64,000 nucleotides of DNA from positions 1 through 64,000 of the IMG/VR virus record IMGVR_UViG_3300012007_000008, one strand, 5' to 3'. Under the pieces are notes generated by a model, which was not told the origin of the DNA, did not search any database, and saw only the letters and a list, made by a program, of their open reading frames with translations. Made by a program: the position numbers and the translations under genes. Every line of letters starts with the position of its first letter. The stretch's first letter is position 1. Shown here piece by piece: positions 3,676 to 56,760 of this stretch. The DNA is from a virus (taxonomy: Duplodnaviria; Heunggongvirae; Uroviricota; Caudoviricetes).

Positions 3676-3995
3676 GATATGTAATACTGCAGCTTCCGCC
3701 GTCTCATAATGCGAAATATATGCATTACGACTACGTAAAGAAAAATGGATACGTGCCAAACCGGGAAGATTATGTCCTGGTTTATGTTGGACAGATGTGG
3801 GGAGAAAGCAGAGATGTAGAAAGCGAACTGGAACATATTTTCTGTAGACTCAACGCAGATGATCGGACCTATGACTATAGAGTTTGGAGTCCGTCAGTTA
3901 GCGATGTGATTGGTTTAGAAACCGCAAATGATCAATGGGAGTTTTATTACATAGACATGATCGGATTTAAGAAAATTTGGGAGGAAAACTTATGA
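3657..3995 (+). CDS. hypothetical protein
   Basis: 112-aa ORF. Confidence 0.4.
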   Translation: MDGRKMRYVILQLPPSHNAKYMHYDYVKKNGYVPNREDYVLVYVGQMWGESRDVESELEHIFCRLNADDRTYDYRVWSPSVSDVIGLETANDQWEFYYIDMIGFKKIWEENL

Positions 3996-4198
3996 AATAC
4001 GAACTGATTGTTAACGGAAACACTGGTTATTATCATTTGAACATTGACGGCGTCTATGCGATAGCGACGCACAATCTTGGATTGAATTTTCAACTCTACA
4101 GGGAAAACGAAGAACATACCAAAATTGCGGAAGGGATTTTGTCTTGGGACGCCCTCGATGAATGCATGAGGTGGGAGAGAAGAAGGTTTGCGGCGTGA
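3977..4198 (+). CDS. hypothetical protein
   Basis: 73-aa ORF. Confidence 0.35.
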   Translation: MGGKLMKYELIVNGNTGYYHLNIDGVYAIATHNLGLNFQLYRENEEHTKIAEGILSWDALDECMRWERRRFAA

Positions 4199-4210
4199 AA
4201 AGAGGATGAG

Positions 4211-4444
4211 ATGAACAAATCGAGAAGAGAAAGATTGAAAGATAGTATCCCTATGATCTCAAAATTAATGGATGTTATAGAGTCAATACGAGACGAAGAG
4301 CAGGAATCGTTAGATTCGCTACCGGGCAATCTATCAGAATCTGAAAGAGCCATGAGAATGGAAGAGATTATAGATTCACTTGATGAGGCGTGTAATAATC
4401 TTGATGACATAAATGCTACTATTAATGATATAATATATGGGTAA
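4211..4444 (+). CDS. hypothetical acidic protein
   Basis: 77-aa ORF. Confidence 0.35.
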   Translation: MNKSRRERLKDSIPMISKLMDVIESIRDEEQESLDSLPGNLSESERAMRMEEIIDSLDEACNNLDDINATINDIIYG

Positions 4445-4507
4445 GGAGGTGACTTAAATCTGAATTGACCAACTAAGAAAACAAACAAATAAAGGGAGGA
4501 CATAATT

Positions 4508-4729
4508 ATGTTCAAAAAAGTTAACGGAAATATATATGAATCCGATAACGGGTATGTCGTAGAGTTTCAGACGGTCGAAGGGAGCAAAGCCGCTTTGGTC
4601 GGGAAGAAGGCGGACAACGGAAGCACGAGGTTGCTGTTTATTGTTTCTGCGGAAGGGATTACGAGAAATAAGTTTTTGACACATTTAGAAGAGAATTTTG
4701 ATCAGTATTTAGATAAATATGCTAAATAA
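4508..4729 (+). CDS. hypothetical protein
   Basis: 73-aa ORF, SD AAGGGAGGA; followed by GC hairpin GGCCGG...CCGGCC at 4750-4775. Confidence 0.4.
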   Translation: MFKKVNGNIYESDNGYVVEFQTVEGSKAALVGKKADNGSTRLLFIVSAEGITRNKFLTHLEENFDQYLDKYAK

Positions 4730-4789: not shown

Positions 4790-5782
4790 TTGGAGGTGAA
4801 TATATTGACAATCCAAACAGGGAAAGCAGAGCATAGAGCAGAATCTGTGAAGAAAATTAAGGAGATGTTAAAAGACAAGCCAGATTTCGTGACTGGGTTT
4901 TATTATTACATGGTAAATTCAGGCAAGACCGCAAGTTATAGAACCCATGAGGCTTATTTGAAATACGTGATTTTATTCCTGAAAGATATAGATAAAGATA
5001 TATCTACAATTAATATGGATGATATTAGCAGATATCTTGCAGGCAAAGCATATAAAGACGACGGAACGGAAACGAGCGGCAGTTATAGGGTCGCCGTTTA
5101 TAGTGCGTTGAAAAAGTTCTTTTATTACTTGAATATTAGTGGTAAAATAAATAGTAACCCAATAGAGAATATTGAACGCCCAAAACCAAAAGCAGCGAGC
5201 CTTGTAGAGAGAACTTATCTTAAGCCGGACGAGATACAAAAATGCTTTGCATATGTCGGCAAGAGAGGGGGAACCTGGGAAAAGCGGAACAAAGCGATGC
5301 TTGTTATGTATTTCGCTACAGGCATCAGAAACACATGTCTCACTGAGATAAATGTTGACAACGTAGATTTCGAGAACAGGTGCGTCTACGTTATAGACAA
5401 AGGAACGAAGCCAAACACCGTTTATCTCGATGAAGAGAAAATGAATGTCTTAAGGGAGTGGATCGCGGACAGGGCAGAAAAGATGGTCGGGCACGCTCAT
5501 ACGAATGCTTTATTTATCAATAAAGAATACAAGAGAATCGAACCGGGAGGGGCGGCTTGGGTAATTAAGAATATTACTAAGAATATCGGACACAAAATCT
5601 CTCCACATAAAGCAAGAGCCTCATTCCTCACTAATGCATATAATTCGGGTATACCGCTTGATGTGGTGTCGAAGCTCGCAAACCACTCATCAACAAAAGT
5701 AACTTCAGATTGTTATATTCAGGGTCAAGATGAAAGGGTTAAAGAAGCTGGAATCAAGGCAACTGAATATCTTAAAATCTAA
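4790..5782 (+). CDS. tyrosine recombinase/integrase (true start possibly TTG 4805)
   Basis: C-terminal catalytic signature HKARASF (HxxR), LANHSS, and Tyr in DCYIQ; N-terminal SAM-like domain. Confidence 0.8.
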   Translation: MEVNILTIQTGKAEHRAESVKKIKEMLKDKPDFVTGFYYYMVNSGKTASYRTHEAYLKYVILFLKDIDKDISTINMDDISRYLAGKAYKDDGTETSGSYRVAVYSALKKFFYYLNISGKINSNPIENIERPKPKAASLVERTYLKPDEIQKCFAYVGKRGGTWEKRNKAMLVMYFATGIRNTCLTEINVDNVDFENRCVYVIDKGTKPNTVYLDEEKMNVLREWIADRAEKMVGHAHTNALFINKEYKRIEPGGAAWVIKNITKNIGHKISPHKARASFLTNAYNSGIPLDVVSKLANHSSTKVTSDCYIQGQDERVKEAGIKATEYLKI

Positions 5783-15935: not shown

Positions 15936-16952
15936 GTGAGTAACATCGATCATGATGCTCTTCAAGAGATGTGCGACAAGGTTGATCTACTGGACTACGC
16001 AAGTCAGTCTTTTGAATTCAGGCGGAAGGGAGACGAGTATTATACTTCATGTCCGTTGCATTCTGATTCCGATCCATCCCTCTCAATAAATCCAAATAAG
16101 AACTTATTCTACTGCCGCTCATGTCATAAGGGCGGCAATATCATTAACTGGATGATGGTTTATGAAGGGAAGACTTTTAACGATGCCGTAGATGCAGTGT
16201 CAAAAATTACAGGAACCAAAGTCCACAATCTGAAAACTTGCGATTCTCTAAAGTTTTTCAAGAATTTGAGCCGTATGAAGGCTAAGTCGGAACCGGAAGA
16301 GATTGAAAGAGATATTCTACCAGATTCTTATATGAATCAGTTTAAGATATCTTCGCCTATTGAATGGGAAGAAGAAGGGATTTCTCCTTCCGTTATGAAA
16401 AATTACGGGGTATGTATAGACGAGGCATCTAACAGAATCTGTTACCCGATCTATGATGCTGAAGATCGGCTAATCGGAGTTAAAGGAAGAACCAGATATA
16501 AAAGATATAAAGAGATGAGAATCTCGAAGTATATGAATTATTCGAAGATTAAGACTATGAACAGTTTTGTCGGATTGAAACAGAACAGGAAAAAGATCCA
16601 GGAGCTACATTCCGCGATTTTGTTCGAAGGTATTAAGAGTGGATTAAAACTTCTAAGCTGGGGATTCCCTAATAACTGGCTGTCTGTAGAAACCAGTAGG
16701 ATCAACGAAGAGCAAGTGAAATTGCTTCTATCTATGAAGCTAAACGAAGTTACGATCGCATTTGACAGAGATGTTAATTATGCGGACATACAGAAATGTA
16801 CAGTAATGCTCAGACATTTTACAAATGTTTACGCAGTCCGCGACAGATACAGAGAGGAAGACAGATTGCTCCCAGGAGATAAAGATAGTCCGGTAGATGC
16901 CGGAAAGGAAGTCTGGGAAACTCTGTATAGCGAAAGGAAAAGAGTTTATTAA
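15936..16952 (+). CDS. DnaG-type DNA primase
   Basis: CHC2 zinc finger CPLH...CRSCH; Toprim EG and DRD motifs. Confidence 0.8.
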   Translation: MSNIDHDALQEMCDKVDLLDYASQSFEFRRKGDEYYTSCPLHSDSDPSLSINPNKNLFYCRSCHKGGNIINWMMVYEGKTFNDAVDAVSKITGTKVHNLKTCDSLKFFKNLSRMKAKSEPEEIERDILPDSYMNQFKISSPIEWEEEGISPSVMKNYGVCIDEASNRICYPIYDAEDRLIGVKGRTRYKRYKEMRISKYMNYSKIKTMNSFVGLKQNRKKIQELHSAILFEGIKSGLKLLSWGFPNNWLSVETSRINEEQVKLLLSMKLNEVTIAFDRDVNYADIQKCTVMLRHFTNVYAVRDRYREEDRLLPGDKDSPVDAGKEVWETLYSERKRVY

Positions 16953-17002
16953 AGAAAGGTTGGACTATGACGAGGGAGGAGGAGCAGTTCTTAATAAGTA
17001 CG

Positions 17003-17815
17003 ATGACGTGGAGCTTTTCGCGGCTAAATTCGTATTCGACTTGCCCATATGAATGGCACGAGAAATATCTGTAGAATAGCCAAGGAGAAGGGTCATTTTA
17101 CGCTGATTTCGGGAGTTTGTTGCATAAGTGCATAGAAGTATATGCCAAGGGAGAAGCGCCCAGAGAAATGCTTCCAGACGTCTTTGAAGCGCTTTGGGGC
17201 GAATATATACAGAACGATTTATATAAGGATGGCGAGGTGAATTATGCAAAAGAGGAGGAGTATTACGAACAGGGACTGAAATATCTTCGGGAACAAATTC
17301 TGGATTTATCTTCCTACGAGATTCTTGGTGTCGAAAAGGAAATAAATTTTCAGTTGACGGACGAAGAAGGATCCTATCCGATGATTGGGTACATCGATTT
17401 ACTCTTAAAAGATAAGGAGACAGGTGAGATCACTATCATGGATAATAAATCGGCTTCCATCAAGTTTAAGAAGAACGGAGATCCTTATAAAGCCGACGAA
17501 CAACATTGGTTGGAATTTAAAAGACAGTTGTACCTATATTCAGTTCCGTTCGTTGAAAATGGAGAAGAGATTTCTTATCTTTCTTGGAACCTGTTCCGGC
17601 TTGGAATCGTGAAGACTATACCATGGAACGCGGAGGAGTATAACGAAGCGAAGAAGTGGGCAATAGATACGATTCGCGAGATTGAAATGGAAAAGGAATG
17701 GGGTTATAAAGAAGATTTCTTTTATTGCCATAACCTTTGTTCGCTACGAGGGGAATGTGCGATGAATATTTCTCAAAGACAAAAAGGAGAATTTGATTCC
17801 TACTATGACTATTGA
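17003..17815 (+). CDS. PD-(D/E)xK Cas4/RecB-like nuclease with one in-frame TAG at 17072-17074
   Basis: N-terminus MTWSFSRLNSYSTCPYEW reads in frame through TAG into the 17117 ORF; core IGYIDLL...DNK; C-terminal Cys cluster CHNLC...C. Confidence 0.6.
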
Positions 17816-21245: not shown

Positions 21246-21254
21246 GGTAGTTTA

Positions 21255-21821
21255 ATGTTAAAAGAATTTAGATACTCCGAAACATAGAAAAAATAGATCA
21301 TCAAGAGTATGACTATTCTCCATGACACGAGATAGAAGTGCAACGAGCATATACTTGATTATTTTGACAGGAAAGGAATTCCGCATAAAGAACGTGCGTT
21401 AGAGCAAGGCGATTATTCTTTTATGATTCCTAAAAACGAGAAACTATCTATCTTAAGAGACTTGATATTTGACAAGTAGATAGTTATAGAAAGGAAAAGA
21501 AACCTTGATGAAATCGCCGGGAATCTCACAAATAAAAAAGATAAAAAGACCGGAGAGATATTAGACCATCGAGACAGATTTGAAAAGGAACTAACCTTAG
21601 CTCCGCATAATAAAATACTTCTCATAGAGAATGCAGATTATGAAGACTTGTCAGAAGCCAGATATCGTAGCGAATACAATAATCAGGCTTTTATGGCAAG
21701 CCTTCATACGTTCTGGTGGAGATATAATCTGCCGATATTCTTTATGAAGAATGATAAATATTCTGGAGAATTTATTTATAAAACATTTGGATACTATTTT
21801 AAAACAGTAATTTTGAGGTAA
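21255..21821 (+). CDS. ERCC4/XPF-like nuclease, possible resolvase, with five in-frame TAG codons
   Basis: hand translation gives GDYSF...IVIERKRNLDEIAGNL (ERK motif); missed by the ORF track because of the TAGs. Confidence 0.55.
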
Positions 21822-23157: not shown

Positions 23158-23415
23158 ATGGCAAGAAGAAGAGGAAAGAAGAAGCCCGTCGAGAAGAAGA
23201 ATAATGTTCAGACAATCAAGAAGAAGGGAAACGGATCCGACTTGAAGCCGACACGTTGTTCGCTTTGCCGTTTTGCAACGGATTCGAGAGGCAATGTCTG
23301 TTATGCCAGAGCAAGACTTCTTCCTGAATTCGAGAAGGTAGATTGTGTTCCGGCATTGATTCATTACTCTGATATGCAGCTAGAGACATTGATCTCCGAA
23401 AGGAGGTTTTCATGA
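23158..23415 (+). CDS. basic zinc-ribbon protein
   Basis: MARRRGKKKP...CSLC...C; SD AAGGAGG. Confidence 0.45.
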   Translation: MARRRGKKKPVEKKNNVQTIKKKGNGSDLKPTRCSLCRFATDSRGNVCYARARLLPEFEKVDCVPALIHYSDMQLETLISERRFS

Positions 23416-23663
23416 AGCTGCGGAATTTGGACAAAGATGATCTATACAGATTCTTCAAAGTCGTTGATAAATGCGAGGAAGATGTTGAACTCGTCGTTAA
23501 AGACGAGATGAGACTGAACCTGAAGAGCAAGCTCAGCCAGTTTGTTTCTCTCGTTGGACTTTTCTCACAGGTAAAAGTGCCGGAAATTGAGATTTACTGT
23601 AAGTCTAACCGCGACGTAAACAGGCTGGTTGATTTTCTTGTCGCAGACGGAGGGACGTATTGA
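23412..23663 (+). CDS. hypothetical protein
   Basis: 83-aa ORF, ATGA overlap. Confidence 0.4.
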   Translation: MKLRNLDKDDLYRFFKVVDKCEEDVELVVKDEMRLNLKSKLSQFVSLVGLFSQVKVPEIEIYCKSNRDVNRLVDFLVADGGTY

Positions 23664-23666
23664 ATT

Positions 23667-23900
23667 ATGAATATGCATATCAGGCTGGACTATGAAAATC
23701 CTGACATTTTTAAGGAGTTTTCTTCCGACGTAAATTCATTCAAGTCTGACATTGATGCAAAATCCGGGAGTATCCACGTAGACGCGAAAAGCCTTCTCGC
23801 TATTGTGGCTCTCGGAAAACCTGAATTCGATGTAACTATTGTTAGCTCAGACGCCGCTGAAATAGCGAGGTTTAAGAAAGTGATGGAGAAGTATACGTGA
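23667..23900 (+). CDS. hypothetical protein
   Basis: 77-aa ORF. Confidence 0.4.
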   Translation: MNMHIRLDYENPDIFKEFSSDVNSFKSDIDAKSGSIHVDAKSLLAIVALGKPEFDVTIVSSDAAEIARFKKVMEKYT

Positions 23901-24568
23901 AATTTGAAAACTGGCAGTGCTTCAATTTTATTGGGGCAATACAAGGCGCAAGAAATCCTTTTAACTCTTGGGAGAGGATGGATTCTTATGAACAAAACGG
24001 AAACGATGTTGCCGATTAGATTGAACCTAATAACATAATTATCGGGCCAAATGACCTGAAATTATGTCAGAATTTGTTGAAATCAGCAACAAAAGATCAT
24101 AGAGATTCACATTCAAAATTCTTACGGCAAATTATGGTGAGTGTTGATGTAACAGCGCCACTTTACTTTTTCAAGGAATGGGACACCTACAAGGTGGCGA
24201 CCACAACCAACTCCACGTCAACAATGTGGAAGCTTGCCTCTACCCCTATTACAAGAGAATGCTTTGAATTCGGTGATTATTCAGAAAACGAGGGTCTCGA
24301 TGACTTCTGGAGTGAATTGATAAATTATCTGGAACTTATCAGACAAACATTTAATAAAACAAAAGACAAGGCTGATTGGAAGGAATTGATCCGCCTTTTG
24401 CCGGAATCGTGGTTACAGACCAGACACTGGACTGGAAACTATCAGGTTCTGCGCAACATGTATTTTGACAGACGCAATCACAAGCTCACTGAATGGAACA
24501 AGGATTTTGTCGGTTGGGTTGAGCAACTTCCTTATGCAAAGGAACTCATCATGTACGAAGGAGACTAA
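23897..24568 (+). CDS. hypothetical protein with one in-frame TAG; GTG start
   Basis: SD GGAGAAG before GTG 23897; continues through TAG into the 24074 ORF. Confidence 0.45.
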
Positions 24569-24624
24569 ACAGTGAATGGATGTAACATAAAGCATATAGA
24601 AGAAACCGGCAAGGAGGAAGAGAA

Positions 24625-25218
24625 GTGTTTGTGATCATTGGCCGTAGCTGCTCCGGTAAGGACACTGTAGCTAAGGAGCTGGAGCGCCGTGGATACTTCC
24701 GTTACCGGACATACACGACTCGTCCTCAGCGTCCAGGGGAGCCGGATGATGCCTACAAGTTCGTTTCAGAACCTGTGTTTCTTGACATGGTTGGTCACGA
24801 CGAGTTCATGGAATATCGCAAATACACCGTCGCAGATGGCAGTGTATGGTACTACGGTTCAGAATGGCCTGTTGTAGGCAAAACTGACAACAAAAACTTT
24901 ATCATTCTTACACCGGACGGTTATCTGAACGCAAAGGATAAACTACCGGATGGATCTTACTGTATCTTGATCGACTGTAATAATGCAACGATTTTGAAGA
25001 GGTTTAAAAAGCGAGGAGATAGCCGGGAGGAATCTACCAGAAGATTTGAGACTGACGTTAAAGATTTTCAGAAAGCGTACCACATTGCAGATCACGTTTT
25101 CTATAACAATGACGGAAGGGATATCGAAGAACTGGCGGATGAGATAGAGGGATTCCTAGAGACAGAAAAGACTCAGGTTCGCGGGATTTATCCTCACGAC
25201 GGTTATCCACATGATTGA
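24625..25218 (+). CDS. P-loop nucleotide kinase, guanylate-kinase-like
   Basis: Walker A GRSCSGKDT; Gmk signature YTTRPQRPGE...YKFVS. Confidence 0.6.
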   Translation: MFVIIGRSCSGKDTVAKELERRGYFRYRTYTTRPQRPGEPDDAYKFVSEPVFLDMVGHDEFMEYRKYTVADGSVWYYGSEWPVVGKTDNKNFIILTPDGYLNAKDKLPDGSYCILIDCNNATILKRFKKRGDSREESTRRFETDVKDFQKAYHIADHVFYNNDGRDIEELADEIEGFLETEKTQVRGIYPHDGYPHD

Positions 25219-25423
25219 GGAGGTTGGTATGGCGGGCATGTCTATGTGTCAAAGTAAAACATGTAAGAAACGTTACTATTGCTATCGTTATAAGGCAGTT
25301 CCAGATAGACTCCAAGGATATTCTGTTGATGATCCGTCAGACCCCAAGGATGGATGTGATTTTTTCTGGGACATGAGACCTTCGGAGGAAAAGAATGACG
25401 GAATACAATTATAGAGGGTTTAA
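25211..25423 (+). CDS. Cys-rich hypothetical protein; terminal TAG read through for 2 codons
   Basis: 67-aa ORF ends TAG AGG GTT TAA. Confidence 0.35.
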
Positions 25424-25577
25424 GGCGATCATCCGGTTTGACGAAAAGGAAAATCTTTATGTCGGAAGAGTGGTCGGTACAGAAATTCATTTTGAGGGTG
25501 CCACTGAAGACTTAGCTAAGTCTCATTGTAGGCGCTCTATTAACGCTTTTATCGACTTCAGAAATGAAGGTCGATAA
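25395..25577 (+). CDS. hypothetical protein, HicB/UPF0150-like fold suspected
   Basis: 60-aa ORF. Confidence 0.3.
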   Translation: MTEYNYRGFKAIIRFDEKENLYVGRVVGTEIHFEGATEDLAKSHCRRSINAFIDFRNEGR

Positions 25578-25608
25578 TTTGTAATATTAAAGAAGGAGGT
25601 AGTAGTTT

Positions 25609-28600
25609 ATGAGGGTAATCAAGAGAGACGGAAGAAAAGTTGAATTTCAAGAAGACAAGGTAAAAATAGCCGTCTTAAAAGCCTTCAAGCAAATAGACGG
25701 AGAAACAACAGAGTATGCCAGAGATAAAGCTGATGCCATAGCCAAATATATAAAAAGCATGGATAAGGATCTGAATGTTGAAGAAATCCAGGATATTGTA
25801 GAATCAAAGCTGATGGCTTGTAACCGTAAAGACGTCGCAAAGGCATATATTATATATAGAAACGACAGAAGCCGAGAGCGTGAGAAGAATAGCTCTTTGA
25901 TGAAAAAAGTTGGCGTAAAGATTAAGGCCGCTAATATTCAGAACCAGAATGCCAACGTTGATGAAAAGTCGTTTGGTGGAAGGATCGGAGAGGCCAGCGG
26001 GGAACTCCTTCGTCAGTATGCTATCGACAATCTTTTATCTGACCTTTCCCGGAATAATCATTTGAACAATGAAATCTATATTCATGACCTAGATCATTAC
26101 GCGGTTGGTGATCATAATTGTTTGTCGATTCCATTTGATAAGCTTTTAGCGGAGGGATTCAATACTAGACAGACAGACGTCCGTCCGGCTCAATCGGTAA
26201 ATACGGCTTTTCAGTTGGTTGCCGTGATCTTCCAGCTACAGTCTCTTCAGCAATTTGGCGGAGTATCTGCCACGCATATAGATCACACAATGGTGCCTTA
26301 TGTCAGGAAGAGCTTTTATAAGCATTATGTCACCGAATATTTGAAGCGCACAAAAGAGTTTCTTGATCTGGATCTGATGAATTATCTCTTTGATACGTAT
26401 GAAGATGAAATCGGGGTTGTCAGGAACAGATTCGACGATTGGGTCGAAGAACATAAAGACGAATTCACTGAGAAGACCGGACTTAGATTTGAGGATTTTA
26501 CTCTCGACAATAAAAATGGTCTTAATCAAGAGCTATTCCAAGCAGCTTTATTCGACACGATCAATGAAACATATCAGGCAGTTGAAGGAATGTATCACAA
26601 CCTAAAAATATTTGGGCGACTCAATAGTGATGTTGAGAACATAGCTGCCTAAACGGGGGAACTCTCACGGAGACAATCCCGTGCTAAATTTGCATCGTTA
26701 TAAAGCGGATACCATTTGAAATATTATAACGATACACTAAACGCCTAACGACTATCCACATGAAACGTGGAGTACACCCAAGCGGGTGGAAATGGCAGCC
26801 TCCTATTTTATAGGATGAAGATATAGTCTAATCTTTATGACAACATAAAGAAGTTCATAAGAGAACTGCATAGGAGTAGCGAACCTATGTGAATATTAAT
26901 GAAATACATTGCAAAGCAGATCAGGGAATCAATTGCCATTCACTTCTATTAATTACGGTACATGCATAACCCCGGAAGGGCGTATGGTAACAAAAGCAAT
27001 TTTAGATGTTTCAATTAAGGGTATTGGTGTGTTGCATAAAACGTCGATCTTCCCATGTGGAATATTCCAGTGTATGAAAGGTGTAAACCGTAAACCGGGT
27101 GATCCAAATTATGATCTGTTTAGGTTGGCGCTTAAATCAACGGCGCGACGTCTCTATCCAAATTATGCCAACGTAGACTGGTCTGGAAACGCCGGATACG
27201 ATCCGAATGATCCGAAAACTTATTTCTCAACGATGGGTAGGTGTAAGCTACAGCTCATCTAAAATCTTTTGAACCCCGCCCGGGGGTGTCGCAAAAGCGG
27301 CTAACGGTTAGGACTCATTGAGTTGAGACCGTGCTAAATAATCAAGAATGGTAAGTAACTAGGAGATGGTATTTTGGTTATTTACAAAATTACAAATATT
27401 ATAAATGGTAAAATTTATGTTGGTAAAACAACAAGATCTCTGAAAGATAGATGGAATCGACATATATACGACGCACTTTCGAATCGTCTTGATACACATT
27501 TTAGTAGAGCAATACGAAAATATGGCCCAGAAAACTTTTAGACTTAGATAATTGATTCTGCAAAATCAGATGAAGAGTTATCTAAAAAAGAAAAATACTG
27601 GATAAATTATTTTAACTCGTGTGAGAACGGATACAATGAAACGATAGGTGGGGACGGTGGAAATACATATATGTCGAAGACCACAGAAGAGATGGATAAA
27701 ATAAAACAGAAGATACGTTCTACGAAAATCGGAAAAGATAATCCAATGGCAAGACCAATCAAATTATTAAGCATGAAAACAGGCGAGGAACTTCATTTTG
27801 GGAGTGCAGCGTAGGTAAGAGATTATTTTGGTGAATCAAACCATAATTTTGTCACCAGAAGAGTAAAACGTTAGATTAAATATTTGTTTAAAGGCGAATG
27901 GAATATAGCATACGAAGAAGATGAATACCCTACGGATGTTAGGTTTGATAAATCAATAAGAAAAAGTTGCCACATCCTTGTATAGGATTTGTATACTGGA
28001 GAAGTCGGTGAATTTGTAAGTTATGCATCTGCGGAAAGACATTTTGGCGTTCGAAACAAAAAGTTTAGTGGAAAAGCTTACAAACACACGTGTAAAGAAT
28101 TTGTTGTTGAAAGTAGATATAAAATTACCATTCTTGATTAAAAGTGTATCGACTATCCCTGATGAATGTATGGGAGTAGGGCTGGAGATAGGCACCAGCG
28201 ATGTTTTAGGAAACGAAGCGTCTGAAAACCGAAGCGGAAGACTGCGGAGAAATCCTGCGAAAGCATAAATGAATTAACATTTAGTAGAAGATATAGTCAG
28301 TTCCTCTGGCGATAGAGGAGGGAAACGTGTAGAACTGTGAATGGGGCAGACATCAACGCCGAACCTGGAACAAACCCTCAAACGAAAGACGGGCGCGGTA
28401 ACATCTGTCCTGTGACAATTATTATGCCTACATTGGCCATGGAGGCGTCTGGAGAAGTAGGCGACAAGGACATCAATTCTTTCATGGAAATTCTCGACCA
28501 GAAAATCCATGAGGCAAAAGATATGCTCATTGAAAGGTATGAGTACATCTGTAGTCAGTCGCCGGATTCGGCTAAATTCATGTATGAGAATGGTACAATG

Positions 28601-29323
28601 CTTGGCTATAAACCAGAAGAAGGAATCCGTTCAGCTTTGAGGCACGGCACAATCGTAATAGGGCAGCTTGGCCTTGCTGAAACTCTTCAGATTTTGATTG
28701 GCTGTGACCATACTACAGATAAAGGTATGAAATTGGCAAAGGAGATCGAACAGCTTTTTAAAGATCGCTGTGCTCAGTTTAAGAAAGAATATCGCTTAAA
28801 CTTTGGTGTGTACTATACACCCGCTGAGAATCTTTGTTACACGGCCATGCAGAAATTCAGGGACCGGTACGGAATAATTGAGAATATTTCAGATAAAGAT
28901 TTCTTTACGAACTCGATACATGTTCCAGTTTGGGTTAACATGAATCCGTTTGAAAAGATCGATATTGAATCTCAACTGACGGGATATAGCAATGCGGGTT
29001 GTATTACATACACAGAGGTTGAGGGATCCGTTAAAAACAACATTGATGCTCTTGAAGAGATTGTGAACTATGCTATGGATCATGACATTCCGTATTTTGC
29101 TGTAAACGTGCCGAACGACACATGTATGGATTGTGGATACTGTGATGAAATCAATGATAAATGTCCAAAATGTGGTGGCACTAATATTCAGAGATTACGC
29201 AGAGTCACAGGCTATCTTACAGGAAATTACACTACAGCTTTCAATAAAGGCAAACAGCAAGAAGTGAATATGAGGGTGAAGCATTGGACATCAGATATGA
29301 AACTCCCTGATAACTGGGAATGA
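25609..29323 (+). CDS. nrdD: anaerobic ribonucleoside-triphosphate reductase NrdD, split gene: join(25609..26603,26902..27238,28328..29323)
   Basis: ATP-cone N-terminus; junctions restore HNL|NTLQSRSGNQLPFTSINYG and STMG|CRT...DGRGN; Gly-radical RVTGYL and CxxC..CxxC at C-terminus; exon lengths sum to 2328 nt in frame. Confidence 0.8.
26604..26901 (+). other. group I intron 1 in nrdD, no ORF
   Basis: 5' exon ends in U paired to G in P1 (CCU|AAA / UUUGGG); intron ends in G; R element AACGACTA (26747-54), S element AAGATATAGTC (26818-28). Confidence 0.6.
27239..28327 (+). other. group I intron 2 in nrdD, carrying a GIY-YIG HEG
   Basis: 5' exon ends ...GGU, intron ends G before TGT(Cys); R-like TCGACTA (28149-55), S AAGATATAGTC (28288-98). 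Confidence 0.6.
27374..28141 (+). CDS. GIY-YIG homing endonuclease, intron-encoded, five in-frame TAG codons
   Basis: SD AGGAGATGG, TTG start; MVIYKITNIINGKIYVGKTT...KYGPENF[TAG]T[TAG]IIDS...KYWINYF...GYNETIGG; NUMOD-like C-terminus. Confidence 0.65.
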
Positions 29324-29829
29324 GATACGCGGGAATAAACCCGGCCGATATTGTCTGCGGAACTGGCGTAGGTGTTTCTGTTTATGTTCAGGGGTGCGAT
29401 TTTCATTGCAAAGGATGCTTTAATCCCCAAACTTGGAGTTTCAATGGGGGAAAAGTCTGGAACGAAGAAATGAATCGTGAGTTTCTGAATGGTATAAACA
29501 AACCTTATATTAAGAGGCTTTCTATCTTAGGAGGAGAGCCTCTTCATCCGAAAAATCTCAAAGGTGTTGACGGATTGATAAACGAAGCAGATAATGTTAA
29601 ACCTCTGACTAAATGGATCTTCTCAGGATATACGTGGGAAGAGATAATGTCTGACGATTCAGAAGCCGGAGAATTGAGAAAACACATCATCAGTAAAATA
29701 GATTATCTGATTGAGGGGCGATTTGAACAAGAGCTTAGAGATGTAACTCTGAAGTTCCGCGGCTCTTCAAATCAGCGCATTATCGATGTAAAGAAAACTT
29801 TAGAAAAAGGAGAAGTGGTGACGATATGA
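29320..29829 (+). CDS. nrdG: anaerobic RNR activating protein NrdG
   Basis: GCDFHCKGCFN CxxxCxxC radical SAM motif; directly downstream of nrdD. Confidence 0.85.
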   Translation: MRYAGINPADIVCGTGVGVSVYVQGCDFHCKGCFNPQTWSFNGGKVWNEEMNREFLNGINKPYIKRLSILGGEPLHPKNLKGVDGLINEADNVKPLTKWIFSGYTWEEIMSDDSEAGELRKHIISKIDYLIEGRFEQELRDVTLKFRGSSNQRIIDVKKTLEKGEVVTI

Positions 29830-30410
29830 TCGAAACAATCAGAAAAGAGATTCTTGCCGGACTTTTAATCGGAATCGGCGGATTCGCGTTTCTTTCGGTT
29901 GATAACAAGTACGTAGGGGCATTCCTGTTCTCGGTTGGACTGATTTCCGTAATCTTGCTCGGCGCGTTTCTATATACAGGAAAAGTCGGCTACGTCAGGA
30001 CAATTCACAGCGCGGTGCTAATGCTTCCTATGTGTTTACTGAATATGATAGGCGCGGTGTTGTTTGGCATTGTTACACAACCTTTGGTTAGAGATCAGGC
30101 AATACGATCTGTCGGCAATAAACTTGCGAAAGAACCGCTAAATGTCTTTATATCAGCCGCGATTTGTGGAGCACTGATCTACCTAGCGGTGGAACTGTTT
30201 AAGAGAAGCAAGAATATACTGGCGGTCATCATTCCGGTATTTGCGTTTGTGGCCGCCGGGACTGACCACTGTATAGCAAATGCGTATTACTTCGCTGCGG
30301 CGGGAGAGTTTACTTCAGACGCTTTGCTTTATTTGGTTATATGTATCTTTGGGAACGCGACCGGATCTCTGGTTGTTTCACTTCTTCAGGGAGAGAAGAA
30401 ATAGCCATGA
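29826..30410 (+). CDS. polytopic membrane protein
   Basis: 5-6 predicted TM helices; ends AAA TAG CCA TGA. Confidence 0.5.
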
Positions 30411-30435
30411 TTATAGAAGAAACGGAATGGCAAAT

Positions 30436-30463
30436 AGAGAGACTTCGGTCTCTCTTTTTTTTA
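30436..30463 (+). terminator. intrinsic terminator
   Basis: AGAGAGAC-TTCG-GTCTCTCT followed by T8. Confidence 0.6.
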
Positions 30464-30570
30464 TGCCTATATCTAAAGACTTTCCTACTTTTCAAAAAAA
30501 CTAGGTTTAGTTTGCTGAATAAATCAGAATGTATATATAGACACATGCAGTGTATAGAAAAGGAGGTAAT

Positions 30571-32195: not shown

Positions 32196-32243
32196 GATCA
32201 TTGGAATTCTGCTTTCCGACAGATTTTTGAACAGGAGGGAAAA

Positions 32244-32861
32244 ATGAAACACAGGATGACGGCAACGGCCTTTGCTATGGTCATTATCGCGGCATCTCTG
32301 GTATTCAGGACAGGGGCATAGGGCAACAAGCCTAAGATGCTCCTGGCCGGAAGTTCATCGATGCGAAGGTGGAAAGATGCGAAAACGGTCTTCAGTGATT
32401 TCAAGGTAATCAATAAAGCCATCGGCGGAACAACGGTCACTGACTGGCTGAGGCTATATAAGAAAAGGATCGTAGATCAGAAACCTGACGTGATCCTTTT
32501 TTATTGCGGCGCGAACGACATCCAGGACGGTGGCGGGATTACGGGCTTAGAGAACGCCGAAAATACGAAAGTATTATTAGAATCAATCAGAAAGAAATTG
32601 AAGAAAACGAAGATTTTCTATATTTCGATCAACCATTGCATAAGAAATCCTCATGCGTGGGGAGAAATAGATGCATCGAATGAAGCAATGAAACGGTATT
32701 GCGAAAAGAAAAAGAATATCTACTACGTGGATATAGTGGCTGTTTCCTTGCTTCCTGACGGAACACCGAACCCGGCATTGTTTAGGGAAGACGGGATTCA
32801 TCCGACAAAACAAGGGTTTAAGGTGTGGAATAGAGTTATAGGTAAAAAGGTAAATCGTTAA
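32244..32861 (+). CDS. secreted SGNH/GDSL-family hydrolase with one in-frame TAG at 32319
   Basis: signal peptide; blocks LLAGSSS, CGANDI, DGIHPT. Confidence 0.55.
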
Positions 32862-46823: not shown

Positions 46824-46933
46824 ATCAGTTTGGAAATATTATAGCCATTGAAGATGATGGAACTCGGATACAGATTCGCGGCGATGACGGAAGAATATAT
46901 GCCGGTTGGACTAAGGACGTGGTTCTACTGTGA
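46760..46933 (+). CDS. small ORF (57 aa) overlapping the end of the 46287 gene
   Basis: MSDYKEPRIGQR...; lies at the left border of the TnpB element. Confidence 0.2.
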   Translation: MSDYKEPRIGQRCFFAFRAGINQFGNIIAIEDDGTRIQIRGDDGRIYAGWTKDVVLL

Positions 46934-47031
46934 GTCTAATTTGTGGAAATACTGGCGCTCCAGTTGGTAAAAACTGTGTTTTGTCCACGCTACAGAAGAA
47001 AAATATTCAATATCCCTGGATAGGTGGTAAT

Positions 47032-48123
47032 ATGAATAAAGGTGTTAAATTTAGAGCGTACCCAAATAAGGATCAACAAAACTTAATAAATCAAACATTC
47101 GGATGTTGTAGATTGATTTATAATAAAGGTCTCGCGATGCGAAACGATGCTTTTGAGAACGGTCAAAAGGTTGGATATACGCAGACATCTTCAATGCTTA
47201 CCGATCTTAAGAAGCAAGATGAATATTCATTCTTGAGAGATGTCGATTCGATTGCTCTGCAACAGTCATTAAGGGATTTGGATCGTGGATTCAAGAATTT
47301 CTTCGAGAAACGGACGAAGCATCCGAGATTTAAGAGCAAACATAATAATAGACAGTCGTATAGGACAATTAACCAAAAGGATAATATACGTATTGTTGGA
47401 AAATATATCAAGTTACCAAAGATAGGATATGTGAAGATTAAACAGTCAATGGATGTTGGACATATCAATAACGTGACTATTGAGAAGACTCCCACTGACA
47501 AATATTATGTAGTTCTGAATGTCGATTTCGAACCAGAGTTTCGTCAGAATGATGGATGTATGATTGGTATAGATGTCGGTATAAAGGAATTCTATTCTGA
47601 CAGTAATGGGAATATTATTGAAAACCCAAAATACCTTGAGAAGTCCTCACGTAAACTCCGCAGGGAACAAAGAAGACTCTCTCGGAAGCAGAAAGGAAGT
47701 AGTAATAGGAATAAACAGCGGATCAGGGTTGCCAGAATGCATGAGAAGATTACAAATCAAAGAAATGATTTTTTACAGAAGCAGACAACTATGCTTGTGC
47801 GTGAAAACCAAACCATCTGCATAGAGGATCTGAACGTAAGAGGGATGCTTCGTAACCATAGGCTTGCGAAGTCAATATCAAGTGCATCTTGGTCGAAATT
47901 TTTTACAATATTGGAGTATAAAGCGATGTGGTACGGAAATGATATAATTAGAGTACCGACCATGTATCCAAGTAGTCAGACTTGTTCTTGTTGTGGATAT
48001 AAAAATCCATTAGTAAAGAATCTGGCAGTCAGAGAATGGGAGTGCCCAAGATGTCATACCATACATGGCAGAGATAAGAACGCTGCGATTAATATTTTGA
48101 ACAAAGGGCTGTCAGTAGCCTAA
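47032..48123 (+). CDS. tnpB: IS200/IS605-family TnpB (OrfB); no TnpA present
   Basis: RuvC-I IGIDVGIKEF, RuvC-II ICIEDLNV, zinc finger CSCCGY...CPRCH, RuvC-III RDKNAAINI. Confidence 0.8.
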   Translation: MNKGVKFRAYPNKDQQNLINQTFGCCRLIYNKGLAMRNDAFENGQKVGYTQTSSMLTDLKKQDEYSFLRDVDSIALQQSLRDLDRGFKNFFEKRTKHPRFKSKHNNRQSYRTINQKDNIRIVGKYIKLPKIGYVKIKQSMDVGHINNVTIEKTPTDKYYVVLNVDFEPEFRQNDGCMIGIDVGIKEFYSDSNGNIIENPKYLEKSSRKLRREQRRLSRKQKGSSNRNKQRIRVARMHEKITNQRNDFLQKQTTMLVRENQTICIEDLNVRGMLRNHRLAKSISSASWSKFFTILEYKAMWYGNDIIRVPTMYPSSQTCSCCGYKNPLVKNLAVREWECPRCHTIHGRDKNAAINILNKGLSVA

Positions 48124-51899: not shown

Positions 51900-52048
51900 A
51901 CAAGAGAGCCGGGAGACTGGCTCTCTTTGTAACGGAAGGAGACAAAATGGCACAAGAAGCAATACAGGAAAACCTGTGGGGATGTTTATAGAAGTTGCGC
52001 CAGATAGAAATCGATGGTATAATTGAACCAGAAGCGGCGCAAACATTA

Positions 52049-53233
52049 ATGGCAAGTAAGAAAGAGAGGATCCTTAAGCAATACCCACCTAGGCAAGCAG
52101 CGGATGGTTCATGGTACGTAAACATCAGGTTTGCCCCAGGGCCAAACGGCAGGAAGGCAATAAGGAAGGGGAGTAAAGAAACCCTTGAAAAGGCGATTAT
52201 AGAATTCGTCGGGGAAAACTTGAAGCCAAAAGAAAAGAAAGGCACTCATTTAAGACTCAACTATAAGGATGCTTTTGAAAGATGGATCAGAGCACAACAG
52301 TACAGAAACAAGAATACAGAGGGTAGGAATCGCCGGGAATATCGCAGGTTTTTTGAGAAATTTGAATTAGGCCGTGAAATAGCTAAAATGGACATAAGGG
52401 CGATCACGTCCTTCCAGATCGAGCAGTTCATGAGCCAAGCGATCCAGGAATATGACCTGACGGCAAGAAAGGCGCTGGAAAACTACAGGATGTTTTTTGA
52501 GTTCGTGTACCGTCAGGCTGTGGTAGACAGGGTCGTTAAACCTGATGAAAATCCTTGTACGTATATCATCGAAAATAGATTCCTCCAGTTCGGAAGGTCT
52601 GAGTCCGATAGGAAAGAAGAATCAAGGACTATTGATCCTGACACAATGAGCATCCTTGACATAGCAATCAGAAAGGACCATGAGAGAAAAGAGGATTACA
52701 TGCCACCATACGCCTGTGAACTTGCGTTTCTGACTGGCATGAGGGTCGGGGAACTTAGCGGATTAACCTGGGACCACATCGATATGGACAAAGGCGCTAT
52801 CTATATAGTTCAGAGCATGAAATACGACTTGGCTACCAAAGAGTACTACATCTCTTCAACGAAAAACAAAAAGAAACGTGTGTTCCCTATCACGGATGAT
52901 ATTCGCGAACTCCTGGAAAGGATTATGTCAATTCAGGATAAGTATGGCAAAACAGAAAACTATGTCTTTTCTACGGCAAAGAAAGCATCAACGAATAGAC
53001 AGCTTAGTGACTACCTTATGAACAAGAGGAAGCAGTACGGTATCACGATTCCGGTAAGCATTCATGCAGCGAGAAGGACGCTTAACAGCAACATGGCGGC
53101 CCAGGGCGTGTCCGTGGACCTCAGGGCGTCCCTCCTCGGTCATATCCCGAGGGTAAATGAAACGAATTACACTTACGATTTGGTATCCTTGGAGGAAAAA
53201 ACAAAAGTGGTTGCAAAAGCTGGGAAACGGTGA
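52049..53233 (+). CDS. tyrosine integrase (second copy)
   Basis: TGMRVGEL box I; HAARRT (HxxR); LLGH; catalytic Tyr in NYTYD. Confidence 0.8.
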   Translation: MASKKERILKQYPPRQAADGSWYVNIRFAPGPNGRKAIRKGSKETLEKAIIEFVGENLKPKEKKGTHLRLNYKDAFERWIRAQQYRNKNTEGRNRREYRRFFEKFELGREIAKMDIRAITSFQIEQFMSQAIQEYDLTARKALENYRMFFEFVYRQAVVDRVVKPDENPCTYIIENRFLQFGRSESDRKEESRTIDPDTMSILDIAIRKDHERKEDYMPPYACELAFLTGMRVGELSGLTWDHIDMDKGAIYIVQSMKYDLATKEYYISSTKNKKKRVFPITDDIRELLERIMSIQDKYGKTENYVFSTAKKASTNRQLSDYLMNKRKQYGITIPVSIHAARRTLNSNMAAQGVSVDLRASLLGHIPRVNETNYTYDLVSLEEKTKVVAKAGKR

Positions 53234-53589: not shown

Positions 53590-54696
53590 TTACCGCTTTC
53601 TCAGCATTTCCACTGAACTCTTCAGTTTCTTGATCGCATAATCCAAATCTTCCTGCGTAGTATCTCTGCCTAACGTCAGGCGCAGAGAGCCGTTTGCTTC
53701 TTCTTCACTCAGCCCTATCGCGGTAAGGACATGGCTTGGTTCTCCACTTCCGGTCTCACAGGCCGATCCTGAAGAGCAGTAGATGTCGTACATAGAGAGC
53801 AGTTCAACCAGTTCTTCTCCGCGGATCCCGTCAAAGACGAAGCTGGCGTTGTTTGGCAACCTGTATACAGGATCTCCGGTCAGCTTACTGCCAGGGATCT
53901 CGGTTAAGACATTCTTGATCAGGTGTGACCTTAGTTCGATCAACCGTGGGGATTCAGTATGGATGGCGGCACAGGATATCTCAGCCGCCTTAGCCATCGC
54001 AACGATCCCGAATACGTTCTCGGTTCCGGCGCGGAGTCCTCGTTCCTGACGACCGCCCTGAAGAAGAGGATGTAGGTCGGTATCCTTTCTGACATACAGG
54101 AAGCCGACGCCCTTAGGCCCGCCGAACTTATGAGCGGAGGCAGAGATAAAGTCTACCTTGATCTCATTTACGTTCAGGATCTGATGTCCATAATACTGCG
54201 TCGCGTCAGTATGGAATTTAACGCCAAAATCGCGGCATAGAGCGGCGATCTCCTTTATAGGTTCCACAGTACCTATTTCGTTGTTGGCCGCCATAACGGA
54301 CACGAGAGGCGTGTATACGTGGCTCTCAATCGTCCTCTTTACATCGTCAGGATCTACTAGACCAGTCTCACTGACGGGTAGCGAATATATCCCTACTTCA
54401 CACGCTGGCATAAGTATCGCGTGGTGTTCGATTGGCGTAGTAATCACGTTGTCGAATGACTGGATCACTGTGTTGTTCGCCTCAGTAGCCCCTGAAGTAA
54501 AGAATATCTCTTCAGGCTCAGCACCGAGAGTATCCGCGATTGTCTACCGCGCTTGTTCTATAGCCGCCCTGGCTTCAATCCCCGGCACATAAGCAGCGGA
54601 AGGATTGTGCCAGTGTTCATATAGATACGGCAGACCCGCCTCTATCGCTTCTGGATAAGGACGGGTAGTTGCCGCATTGTCTAAATATACGTTCAT
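53590..54696 (-). CDS. cysteine desulfurase (IscS/NifS/DndA-like, class V aminotransferase) with in-frame TAG at 54544-54546
   Basis: rebuilt N-terminus MNVYLDNAATTRPYPEAIEAG...EQAR[TAG]TIADTLGAEPEEIFFTSGATEANN; PLP region SASAHKFGGPKGVGFLYV. Confidence 0.75.
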
Positions 54697-54731
54697 TATC
54701 CTTTATTCCTTTCAAACAAACATCGGAGAGA

Positions 54732-56585
54732 TCAGTTTCGCCTGTTCCTAATCACGTAAGCGAGAACCACCAACACCGCGAAAGAGAGCAGTAGGGCGCA
54801 TACAAACCTCATGATCGGAGAGTCATCGCCGGTCTTCGGTATCACGACAAGCTCTTCCGTGGCGGCCTTGATGGCCACTTCGGTGTCTCTGTTGGCACCT
54901 TTAACTTCGCTGATCTTCTTGGTTCTATGTGTTTCTTCGGTCTTTTTTCCCCGGCTTTCGCCCATGGCTCCGCCATCCTGTTTCTTCGTTTCTTCTTCCG
55001 GCGGAAGAGTTTCGTTAGGCGTTGTTTCCTTGGCCGGGATATAGACGGGGACATAGGACGGGTTATTGACTACGGGGATAGGAGAGGTAGGCGTTTCTGT
55101 CACGTTAACTTCTGTAGGCAAGATAACCGTTTCAGTTTCCGTGGTGAGAGATATCTGAGACTCTGTGATTGATATCTGAGGCTCTGTGATTGATATCTCA
55201 GTCTCTCTGAGCGATATTTGGGTCTCAGGTATAAGTTCAGAGATCGGTGGATCTGTCTCTTCCGTTTCGACAAGTTTTGGTTCCGTTTCTATCACGGGCT
55301 GTTCTGTTTCAATAACCGTCACGGGCTGTTCTGTTTCAATAACCGTGATATCAGTTTCGATTAACGGGATCTCTGTTGGTTGTTCGGTTTGAACCGGCTC
55401 AGTCTGCCTCGGCTCAGTATCAGGGATCACAATCTCTTCGGTTTCTATGATCGGAATGATTTCTGACTGTGTTTCCGACTGCTCTGAGATAAGTTCCGAT
55501 TCCTCCGACTGTGTTTCCGGTTCTTCCGACTGTGTTTCCGGTTCCGGTTCAGGGATCCGGGTAGATCCTTGGTAAGGCCACATATGTCCCTCAGCGAGAG
55601 TAGAGATATTCTGACCGAATAAACAGCCATTCGTATTGCCGCCGTTGATCTGAATATCGGCGTAAGGCGCGAGGACACACCCGATCTCTGGCGTCAGTTC
55701 CGTAGGTATCACTACTGTATTAGCGTTCGGATAGACGATACAGATCGGTTCGCTGCCGCCGTTTTCTTCACCCTGGGATAGCCCTACAACCTGAGGGTTC
55801 AGTACGGTTCCTGAGTCGAGTACGTTTATAATAGTACCTTCTCCAGTCGGGTTCCCGGTAAGCCGGATTTTTACAAAATTTCCCTGAACTAGAAGATTAG
55901 TGATAGTACCGCGCTGGATCTCTATTTCTTGCCAGTTCCAGTCTGGCTTAACAGTTGGTGCGAGAGAAGATAGGTTCTGAATACGATAGACTTCAGATGT
56001 TGCCGCCTCGTAGATCCGCGCCCAGTCCACGTAATTGTCCGTAACGATGATCGGATCGTCATGGTTGTACCAGTTCATCCCGTTCAGGGTGGTTCCGTCG
56101 ACAGTATTGGAAGAGCCGACGTAGAGTGGGATCCCGCTGTATTTGGATCTTCCGTTAGGGCCTCCTGGCTTACTCACGTATCCGGCGATGTAGCTCGGAG
56201 CGACAGTATAGGGTGAGTCTGCGAAGTTGTTATAGTTCCCGGACAGGTCGCCCTGAACTAGAAGATTGCCCATACAGTGCTGGTTGATGTCGGCGTTGCC
56301 TAAGGCTATCACACCGTAGTAGTTCATGAGATAGTCGAGAGAGTAGTCCTGAAGAGTAGGATTATCAGGAGTTTCTTCAATCAGATTCTCTGGTAATGTT
56401 TCTTCTTCGGGAGGGGTTTCGTAGTAATTATCGGGAACGATTTCTTCGTAAGGCTCAGTCTACGCCGCTTCGGTTACATACGGAATCGCAACCTTGAACA
56501 TCAGGATCAGGGTCAGGATACCGATTAAACAGATCACCGCAGACGGCACGATTTCCTTCAGGAATTCGGTCACCTTCTTTATCAT
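54732..56585 (-). CDS. LPxTG-type (IPKTG) cell-wall-anchored surface protein with Thr/Glu/Gln-rich repeats and in-frame TAG at 56460-56462
   Basis: SD AAGGAGGTGA; signal peptide MIKKVTEFLKEIVPSAVICLIGILTLILMF; C-terminal IPKTG then hydrophobic stretch then RNRRN; DNA tandem repeats 55140-55560. Confidence 0.65.
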
Positions 56586-56586
56586 C

Positions 56587-56760
56587 TTAATCACCTCCTT
56601 CGTAATTGTCCCTCACTTTCTTTTCTGAAAATTTATCCTGTTTTCTCTTTTTGCTACGGTCTTTCACTTTGATTCCGTATTCGCGGAGAGCGTAATCATT
56701 ACCATCCTATTCGGAAAAATCGAAAGCGTAGCTGGTATAGTTTCGGGTTTCTTTCTTCAT
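56587..56760 (-). CDS. small basic protein (57 aa) with one in-frame TAG
   Basis: SD AGGAGAATAACAG; stop overlaps SD of the surface-protein gene. Confidence 0.35.

Follow-up and report, generated by a model that had tools for sequence, protein, structure and literature searches.

In the first 64,000 nucleotides (nt) of the Caudoviricetes contig IMGVR_UViG_3300012007_000008 (hereafter the window), the ribonucleotide reductase gene nrdD is interrupted twice. Our analysis makes it highly probable that the window belongs to a TAG-recoded phage, that its nrdD is split by two group I introns of the T4 nrdD type, and that the second of these (intron 2) bears a TAG-rich homing endonuclease gene. The likeliest consequence would be that the endonuclease is made only once TAG is decoded. 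A preliminary description had proposed two group I introns in this gene, one bearing a TAG-containing gene of the GIY-YIG family, and the evidence presented here supports that arrangement.

All three exons lie on the + strand. Exon 1 (25609–26603) encodes the ATP-cone and N-terminal part of the protein and ends after the second base of codon L332; exon 2 (26902–27238) ends after codon G444; and exon 3 (28328–29323) opens with the codon for the catalytic Cys445 and encodes the Zn ribbon and the glycyl-radical motif RVTGYL. When the three segments are ligated, from the ATG at 25609 to the TGA at 29321–29323, their length is a multiple of three and the frame is free of stops, giving a NrdD protein of 775 amino acids (aa). 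This product shows a single unbroken match to Pfam NRDD (residues 114–763, E = 1.3e-144, 483 bits), along with matches to Pfam ATP-cone and Gly_radical. Its alignment to PDB entry 8p23 is unbroken over both junctions, with HNLNTLQSRSGNQLPF opposite hnmntihsrggnqvvf and STMGCRT opposite atmgcrt. Within STMGCRT, Cys445 aligns with Cys290 of T4 NrdD, which we take to be the catalytic cysteine of that enzyme, and RRVTGYL aligns with T4 RRTCGYL (Gly580). Splicing had been said to restore two conserved segments, HNLNTLQSRSGNQLPFTSINYG and STMGCRT with the active-site Cys, and both are indeed present in the in-frame product. With its NRDD and ATP-cone domains, catalytic Cys, Zn ribbon and glycyl-radical motif, the protein is identified as a class III ribonucleotide reductase (RNR).

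An intron-less allele fixes the junctions to the nucleotide, as the preliminary description had claimed possible. Viral contig IMGVR_UViG_3300021387_000199 (L003) is syntenic with positions 23341–30467 of the window, and its nrdD is uninterrupted, with 92% aa and 81% nt identity to that of the window. The ligated exons align to L003 nrdD without gaps, and base-for-base identity runs through both junctions. BLAST segments between the two contigs break at 26606/26902 and 27238/28348, inside the otherwise colinear block, and the flanking bases allow no shift of either junction. Each upstream exon ends in U (U26603, U27238) and each intron in G (G26901, G28327), again as proposed. The predicted ligated RNAs read CACAACCU joined to AAAUACA at junction 1 and AUGGGU joined to UGUAGAA at junction 2; the empty site 2 of the L003 type reads TTTAGTACGATGGGT followed directly by TGCCGTACGAGC. 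A metagenome scan for ligated junction 2, whether from an intron-less allele or from spliced RNA, returned 0 matches. Among the best 80 viral nrdD genes nearest to that of the window, none has an intron at either site, and only one (L064) contains an insert, near residue 740.

Structure and relatives of the two introns

Intron 1 (26604–26901, + strand) is a 298-nt group I intron without an open reading frame (ORF), resembling the T4 nrdD (sunY) intron and having both P7.1/P7.2 and P9–P9.2. It matches Rfam RF00028 (Intron_gpI) over all model positions (1–253 of 253) with 70.1 bits and E = 9.8e-16, the gathering score being 50 bits. P1 pairs 26601–26606 (CCU and AAA, on either side of the splice site) with UUUGGG at 26611–26616, with a wobble pair U26603.G26614 at the end of the exon; this helix, named in the preliminary description, is also the P1 drawn by the Rfam alignment. 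The same guide forms P10, in which 26609–26613 (UAUUU) pairs with AAAUA at the very start of exon 2 (26902–26906). Helices P2, P3 (26644–26649/26794–26799), P7 (26750–26755/26823–26828), P7.1 (26756–26770), P7.2 (26775–26788), P8, P9, P9.1 and P9.2 all form. The frame of exon 1 ends 16 codons into the intron, at a UAA (26650–26652) that is the J3/4 UAA. Alignment to the core of the T4 nrdD intron gives z = 14.

Intron 2 (27239–28327, + strand) is a group I intron of 1089 nt with an endonuclease ORF in the P6a loop. It lies in phase 0 between G444 and C445, immediately 5' of the catalytic Cys codon. Its P1 comprises 7 bp (27232–27238, GAUGGGU, with 27253–27259, GCUCAUC) and ends in U27238.G27253, and its P10 comprises 5 bp (27248–27252, CUACA, with 28328–28332, UGUAG, of exon 3). 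The two guide segments are contiguous (CUACA-GCUCAUC), so a single guide specifies both splice sites. P3 (27265–27271/28235–28241) is followed by P4/P5 (27305–27331) and by a perfect 15-bp P6a stem (27339–27353/28126–28140) that closes off the ORF. On the 3' side lie P7 (28151–28156/28293–28298), P7.1 (28157–28174), P7.2 (about 28179–28230, carrying an inserted extra hairpin), P8 (28242–28245/28284–28287, enclosing three small hairpins) and P9 (28301–28320). The frame of exon 2 ends at 27260–27262, just past P1 and 8 codons into the intron.

In both introns all P1 and P10 pairs are standard, the exon-final U wobbles with a guide G, and the terminal G is intact. The IA2-type phage introns of Michel and Westhof are marked by additional P7.1 and P7.2 hairpins, which follow the 5' strand of P7 and precede the 3' strand of P3; both window introns have them. 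The R and S elements previously noted in each intron are found where expected: R at 26748 (ACGACTATCC) and 28149 (TCGACTATCC), S (AAGATATAGTC) at 26818 and 28288. The window contains no other exact copies, and the two elements of each intron are in the correct order on the + strand. As short motifs they are not significant alone, with ~1.7 and 6.3 one-mismatch matches expected by chance; the significance of the introns derives instead from the covariance-model match, the T4 homology and the colinearity of the exons.

Homology to T4 is evident for intron 2 as well. A 32-nt stretch covering J6/7, P7 and P7.1 is 97% identical to the T4 nrdD intron (BLAST, E = 5e-5 in 2.3 Gb), and a global alignment of intron 2 minus its ORF to the T4 core gives z = 9.2. 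The blocks in common are the guide GCUCAU, P3, J3/4–P4, P6, P7–P7.1, the 3' strand of P3 and the S element.

A scan for the spacing pattern of R and S uncovered relatives of intron 2 at the identical nrdD site in four IMG/VR contigs, L171, L180, L194 and L200, and a cousin in another gene in L243. At site 2, the introns of L200 and L194 have no ORF, that of L171 contains a GIY-YIG gene and that of L180 an HNH gene. We aligned the sequences from the window, L171, L200, L243 and T4 (n = 5) and evaluated a structure specified by hand (P1, P3, P4, P5, P6, P7, P7.1, P7.2, P8, P9 and P10). Paired cells amounted to 88.3%, compared to 39–45% with slid partners, and 29 pairs were changed on both sides, compared to 4–8 in the slid controls; none of 500 shuffles reached the observed values. 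Compensatory change is seen in 5 of 7 pairs of P3, all 7 of P7.2 and 3 of 4 of P8, and the helices that covary among the relatives are P3, P4/P5, P7.1, P7.2 and P8. P3, for example, reads UCUUUUG/CGGAAGA in the window, UCUCGUG/CGCGAGA in L200, CGGUGUG/CGCACCG in L243 and, read by eye, CCGAUUG/CGGUCGG in L194. P3 and P7 pair in both introns, and the core of intron 2 covaries across its relatives.

We also considered an alternative P3 formed near J3/4 (GCGG/CUGC), which is the choice of Rfam in L200. It is ~6 kcal/mol worse, fails in L171 and collides with P8 in L200. The UCUUUUG/CGGAAGA version of P3 covaries in L200, L243, L194 and L180.

Site 2 is thus empty in L003 and occupied in L171, L180, L194 and L200, a presence/absence polymorphism that is compatible with homing without proving it. 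A further search for closer relatives of intron 2, based on the pattern of P7.1 and S, returned only an unrelated polA intron (L157).

Relatives of intron 1 point to a history of gene loss. Homologous introns occur at exactly site 1 in L191 and L194, where the P6a loop holds a 233-aa GIY-YIG gene, and in L205, where the intron has no ORF. The short P6a loop of intron 1 matches the last ~13 codons of the L191/L194 gene. Judging from this remnant, intron 1 is a copy that lost its GIY-YIG gene by deletion, with the ribozyme and the last ~13 codons (part of P6a) retained.

The intron endonuclease and TAG recoding

The GIY-YIG ORF of intron 2 (27374–28141, + strand) begins with TTG, runs for 255 codons and terminates at a TAA located in the 3' strand of P6a. 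Before that stop it contains in-frame TAGs at five positions (27539, 27545, 27812, 27872 and 27983) and no TAA or TGA, in agreement with the five uses of a recoded TAG that had been reported; the other two frames of the stretch contain 11 and 23 TAA/TGA stops. With TAG read as Q, Pfam PF01541 matches residues 2–88 with 39.5 bits (cut-off 22.6), across the TAGs at codons 56 and 58. The sequence shows VIY...YVG, R21, E72 and N87, which correspond to the motifs of I-TevI.

More than 70 relatives found by tblastn align through TAG56 and TAG58. The L171 ortholog occupies the same P6a loop and is intact, TAG-free and 251 aa long. Its 46% identity to the window protein extends over 198 residues and spans four of the five TAGs, at which it holds V, E, E and N/K; the C-terminal region of the window protein aligns with it up to residue 198. 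The L171 contig contains long ORFs that terminate in TAG. A protein search of viral contigs returned only distant relatives, limited to the catalytic domain (at most 57% identity over 37 residues), and a metagenome scan for homologs keeping the TAG-x-TAG arrangement gave 6 spurious matches and 0 GIY-YIG genes.

The start region appears poorly suited to strong expression. Most of the Shine-Dalgarno (SD) sequence GGAG (27362–27365) and the TTG start codon (27374–27376) are base-paired within a local hairpin (27351–27385, + strand; –12.9 kcal/mol, z = –3.95). We infer that the TTG start, this hairpin and five TAG suppression events would together restrain translation of the endonuclease.

Sense reading of TAG is seen elsewhere in the window. 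Pfam matches span in-frame TAGs for Aminotran_5 (residues 3–353 of 368), ERCC4 and PDDEXK_1. The loci open only with TAG as sense encode a class-V aminotransferase (NifS-like; 53590–54702, – strand), an ERCC4 nuclease with 4 TAGs (21246–21821, +), a PD-(D/E)XK nuclease (16883–17815, +), a weakly ThyX-like protein (23876–24568, +), a GDSL-like protein (32196–32861, +) and a secreted repeat protein (54732–56612, –); a free-standing GIY-YIG gene is likewise open only when TAG is sense. Of 68 + strand ORFs of at least 90 aa, 3 end in TAG, and two of these have a TGA 1–2 codons later. Reading through all TAGs across the window gained no more ORF coverage than reading through TGA or TAA. Recoding was therefore shown gene by gene. 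On the basis of these genes, we consider it justified to regard the window as that of a TAG-recoded phage in which TAG would be read as sense. In L003, 2 kb separate nrdD from a downstream gene for a tRNA with anticodon CUA (L003:8449–8521). The nrdD gene itself (775 codons), nrdG and the gene for a 1150-aa DNA polymerase are TAG-free, and no other window ORF examined has as many TAGs as the endonuclease gene, with its 5 in 255 codons.

The free-standing GIY-YIG/NUMOD1 gene (56998–58236, – strand) has two in-frame TAGs. In the catalytic domain it shares 48% identity (E = 6.5e-30) with the endonuclease of the site 1 intron in L191 and L194. The ORF-less intron 1 might be served in trans by its product, as the nrdB intron of T4 is by mobE.

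Competing readings of the locus

A mechanism can be sketched by homology to T4. In each intron the guide would first pair with the last bases of the upstream exon to give P1, the cleavage site being marked by a U.G wobble, and would then form P10 with the five initial bases of the downstream exon. Free guanosine at P7 would attack the 5' splice site, and the released exon would then attack after the terminal G, yielding a spliced mRNA for the complete 775-aa class III enzyme. Ribosomes arriving from the exons would halt 16 (intron 1) or 8 (intron 2) codons in, before the catalytic core; given these early stops, they should not enter the ribozyme cores. The role proposed for the intron 2 endonuclease is to cut intron-less nrdD, for example of the L003 type, during co-infection, with repair copying the intron in. 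TAG-free NrdD would be made early, under the standard code of the host, and the endonuclease only once TAG is decoded, a scheme modeled on that of Borges et al.

Several results weigh against the reading of the locus as a recoded, doubly intron-split nrdD. Splicing of both introns is deduced from sequence alone. The covariance-model scan proposed in the preliminary description succeeded for intron 1 and failed for intron 2: with the intron in place (27150–28450), Rfam RF00028 reported nothing at E ≤ 10, and when the halves were searched apart the 3' half scored 17.5 bits and the 5' half nothing. Even the ORF-less relative in L200 reached only 23.8 bits, against the gathering score of 50. The covariation test involves only five sequences, one of which supplied the structure; both the slid controls and the separate T4 homology agree with it as to the probable core of intron 2. 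A promoter/terminator scan of the nrdD operon found nothing above shuffled expectation inside the introns. For the endonuclease, Pfam recognizes no DNA-binding module in residues 100–255, neither the viral-contig nor the metagenome search revealed a closer homolog that retains the TAGs, and homologs hold V, E, K, T or N at the TAG positions. Finally, no tRNA (Rfam included), and hence no decoder of TAG, is present in the 64-kb window.

The Rfam failure has a likely structural source. The T4 nrdD intron itself scores 105 bits on Rfam. Intron 2 has two hairpins (27273–27287 and 27288–27301, + strand) between the 5' strand of P3 and the J3/4 UAA, at a position that is kept in all relatives of intron 2 and that is not in the Rfam consensus. 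Low scores in this family can be ascribed to these hairpins and the 768-nt ORF, which misfit the architecture of the model, and the family is probably under-detected by standard Rfam scans. The second of the two hairpins hosts long insertions in L171 and L180, and the L200 counterpart of the pair lies at L200:8600–8640.

Are the TAGs themselves regulatory? It could be that the five TAGs, the hairpin and the TTG start together tie endonuclease synthesis, and hence homing, to the suppressor tRNA of the phage, as an adaptation to the alternative code. We advance this idea tentatively and consider it somewhat unlikely. If it were true, cleavage would be delayed to late infection and spread of the intron would be confined to TAG-recoded phages, amounting to a genetic-code barrier to a selfish element, beyond which the TAG-free L171 ortholog would be the matching form. 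A simpler possibility, to which we give appreciable weight though well short of an even chance, is that the TAGs have no regulatory meaning and reflect ordinary accumulation in a recoded genome, with the hairpin and promoters controlling the timing of expression, as they do in T4. Consistent with this, the aminotransferase, ERCC4 and PD-(D/E)XK genes, which are not obviously late, also hold TAGs, and T4 intron endonucleases are delayed without recoding (PMC2988022), a comparable hairpin being present in the window. Other observations fit less well: the endonuclease gene tops the TAG count, whereas nrdD, nrdG and the DNA polymerase gene have none; the L171 ortholog is free of TAG on a contig with TAG-ended long ORFs; and Borges et al. 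found an intron endonuclease family to be preferentially recoded in Agate phages.

It is improbable that the ORF is instead a decaying pseudogene, in which the TAGs are true stops, the intron is immobile and the ribozyme alone is maintained. The loss of the endonuclease gene from intron 1 of this nrdD is demonstrable; the window lacks a tRNA with anticodon CUA and the C-terminal half of the protein a Pfam DNA-binding domain; and the TTG start and sequestered SD suggest weak expression. However, decay in AT-rich DNA should collect TAA and TGA too, yet five TAGs stand alone in this frame while the other frames have 11 and 23 stops of the other kinds. Moreover, the ORF retains 255 aa relative to the intact 251-aa ortholog, with their similarity running across four TAGs, and conserved genes of the window with full-length Pfam matches also hold in-frame TAGs.

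Very improbable, in our estimation, is the possibility that intron 2 is not spliced, leaving nrdD inactive or expressed as separate polypeptides in the manner of the 'gene in pieces' nrdA of Aeromonas phage Aeh1. The failure of the generic Rfam model and the unusual insertions in J3/4, P7.2 and P8 would fit such a state, and the nrdD of L171 truly consists of two ORFs, divided shortly before the intron. Yet the 5' end of exon 3 has neither an SD nor a plausible start; the first start codon, GTG at 28337, lies past the Cys codon, so that a separate C-terminal piece would lack Cys445. P1, P10, P3, P7 and the terminal G are intact, compensatory changes maintain the core in the relatives, and the strong conservation of the exons (92% aa identity to L003) likewise argues for a functional, spliced gene.

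That the interruptions are inteins or another type of insertion (group II intron, insertion sequence (IS) element) can be dismissed: RNR genes commonly host inteins (PMC3653736), but here the exon frames stop within 8–16 codons in both inserts, intron 1 matches the Rfam group I model, and GIY-YIG is the sole Pfam domain in the inserts, which contain no intein or reverse-transcriptase ORF.

Known systems and neighboring features

The Agate phage study of Borges et al. was reportedly published in Nat Microbiol in 2022. In the text of its preprint used here (bioRxiv 10.1101/2021.08.26.457843), a group I intron endonuclease within an early gene is preferentially written with reassigned TGA, and delayed production is proposed. 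The window resembles that case in having a homing endonuclease rich in the reassigned stop within an intron of a presumably early gene. The reassigned codon differs, being TGA (to Trp) in Agate phages and TAG in the window, and that text leaves the host gene and intron structure unnamed.

A close precedent is T4, where nrdD contains a mobile intron with the GIY-YIG enzyme I-TevII (PMC2988022). The T4 nrdD (sunY) intron shares its host gene and intron lineage with the window introns. Intron 1 and the T4 intron have the P9.2 region in common, and both systems encode a GIY-YIG endonuclease whose ribosome-binding site lies in a hairpin (for T4, PMC2988022). Differences are also clear. T4 has one intron, in codon Y180, and intron 1 of the window lies 7 nt downstream of the homologous position; intron 2 occupies a second site, before the codon equivalent to Cys290. 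The I-TevII gene is 3' of the core, in the P9 region, while the window ORF occupies the P6a loop. The genetic code of T4 is standard, whereas the window phage is TAG-recoded.

Group I introns are classic in phage RNR genes, and a survey of phage genomes found nrdD to be the most often split (PMC3653736). According to the passages of PMC12880540 on Jug phages, nrdD is fragmented in most of their genomes, with four pieces in one example; responsible are group I introns, endonuclease genes or putative inteins. Metatranscriptome reads confirm splicing at some of these junctions. The nrdE gene of Staphylococcus phage Twort has two introns, as cited in PMC3653736. As far as these passages go, Jug nrdD and Twort nrdE resemble the window in having several self-splicing introns per RNR gene, with or without an endonuclease and beside catalytic residues. 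They come from other phage lineages, and the passages concerned make no statement on stop-codon recoding of endonucleases.

The IMG/VR relatives, which are unannotated, have introns with homologous cores at insertion sites that are nucleotide-identical to those of the window: both sites are occupied in L194, site 1 in L191 and L205, and site 2 in L171, L180 and L200. ORF content is shuffled in L194 compared to the window, with an ORF in the site 1 intron and none in the site 2 intron.

Every element of the window locus thus has a precedent, in T4 nrdD and I-TevII, Jug nrdD or the recoded Agate endonuclease, and no new kind of element is involved. What the locus adds is TAG as the reassigned codon, together with a pair of T4-type introns, a decayed one and a complete one, each at a site that is used recurrently. 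Three known phenomena, T4-type nrdD introns, recurrent insertion beside catalytic residues and an endonuclease in an alternative code, are combined in one gene. With a recoded gene in the window, a non-recoded ortholog in L171 and an empty site in L003, the locus offers a test case for whether recoding delays or confines homing endonucleases. Given that the intron 2 family escapes Rfam and the ORF is broken under the standard code, routine annotation would yield three nrdD fragments and several short ORFs.

Downstream of nrdD lies nrdG, encoding the activating enzyme (29320–29829, + strand; Pfam Fer4_12, 5.8e-41, and Radical_SAM). It overlaps the nrdD stop by 4 nt (ATGA) and belongs to the same operon. 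A terminator-like site (30436–30455) follows the ORF after nrdG, and synteny between the window and L003 stops at 30467, directly after this hairpin. Neighbors in the window include genes for a DnaB-like helicase, integrases and RNA ligase, which place nrdD within a module for replication and nucleotide metabolism. The window also contains an IS-type transposase gene (46930–48123, +; phrog_506, E = 3e-134) and two tyrosine integrase genes (4790–5782, +, and 51995–53233, +).

Other viral nrdD genes show additional interruptions. In L171, nrdD is split into two ORFs on the – strand at about 1290–1205 (...IIEEN stop, then MKKLVPVKDSPLAVFSTMG), ~60 nt upstream of the site 2 intron, which may add a 'gene in pieces' arrangement to that of the intron. 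Thomasclavelia phage TR-TP2 (PQ571310; L001) is annotated in its deposited record as having two NrdD fragments and an HNH endonuclease. From its sequence, region 3796–4672 can be read as a group I intron whose P6a loop holds the HNH gene. It is inserted 4 nt upstream of site 2 of the window, and Rfam gave no report for it at E ≤ 0.01. The 3' end of that intron (P9.1–P9.2) is almost identical to that of window intron 1. Further inserts in viral nrdD genes are found at about residues 160, 219, 609/610 and 740, the last beside the glycyl-radical motif (L064:6136–6888, L200:9354–9682, L180:2721–3767, L205:5669–5969 and L205:6650–6940). In L205, a second insert lies ~30 nt past the site 1 intron.

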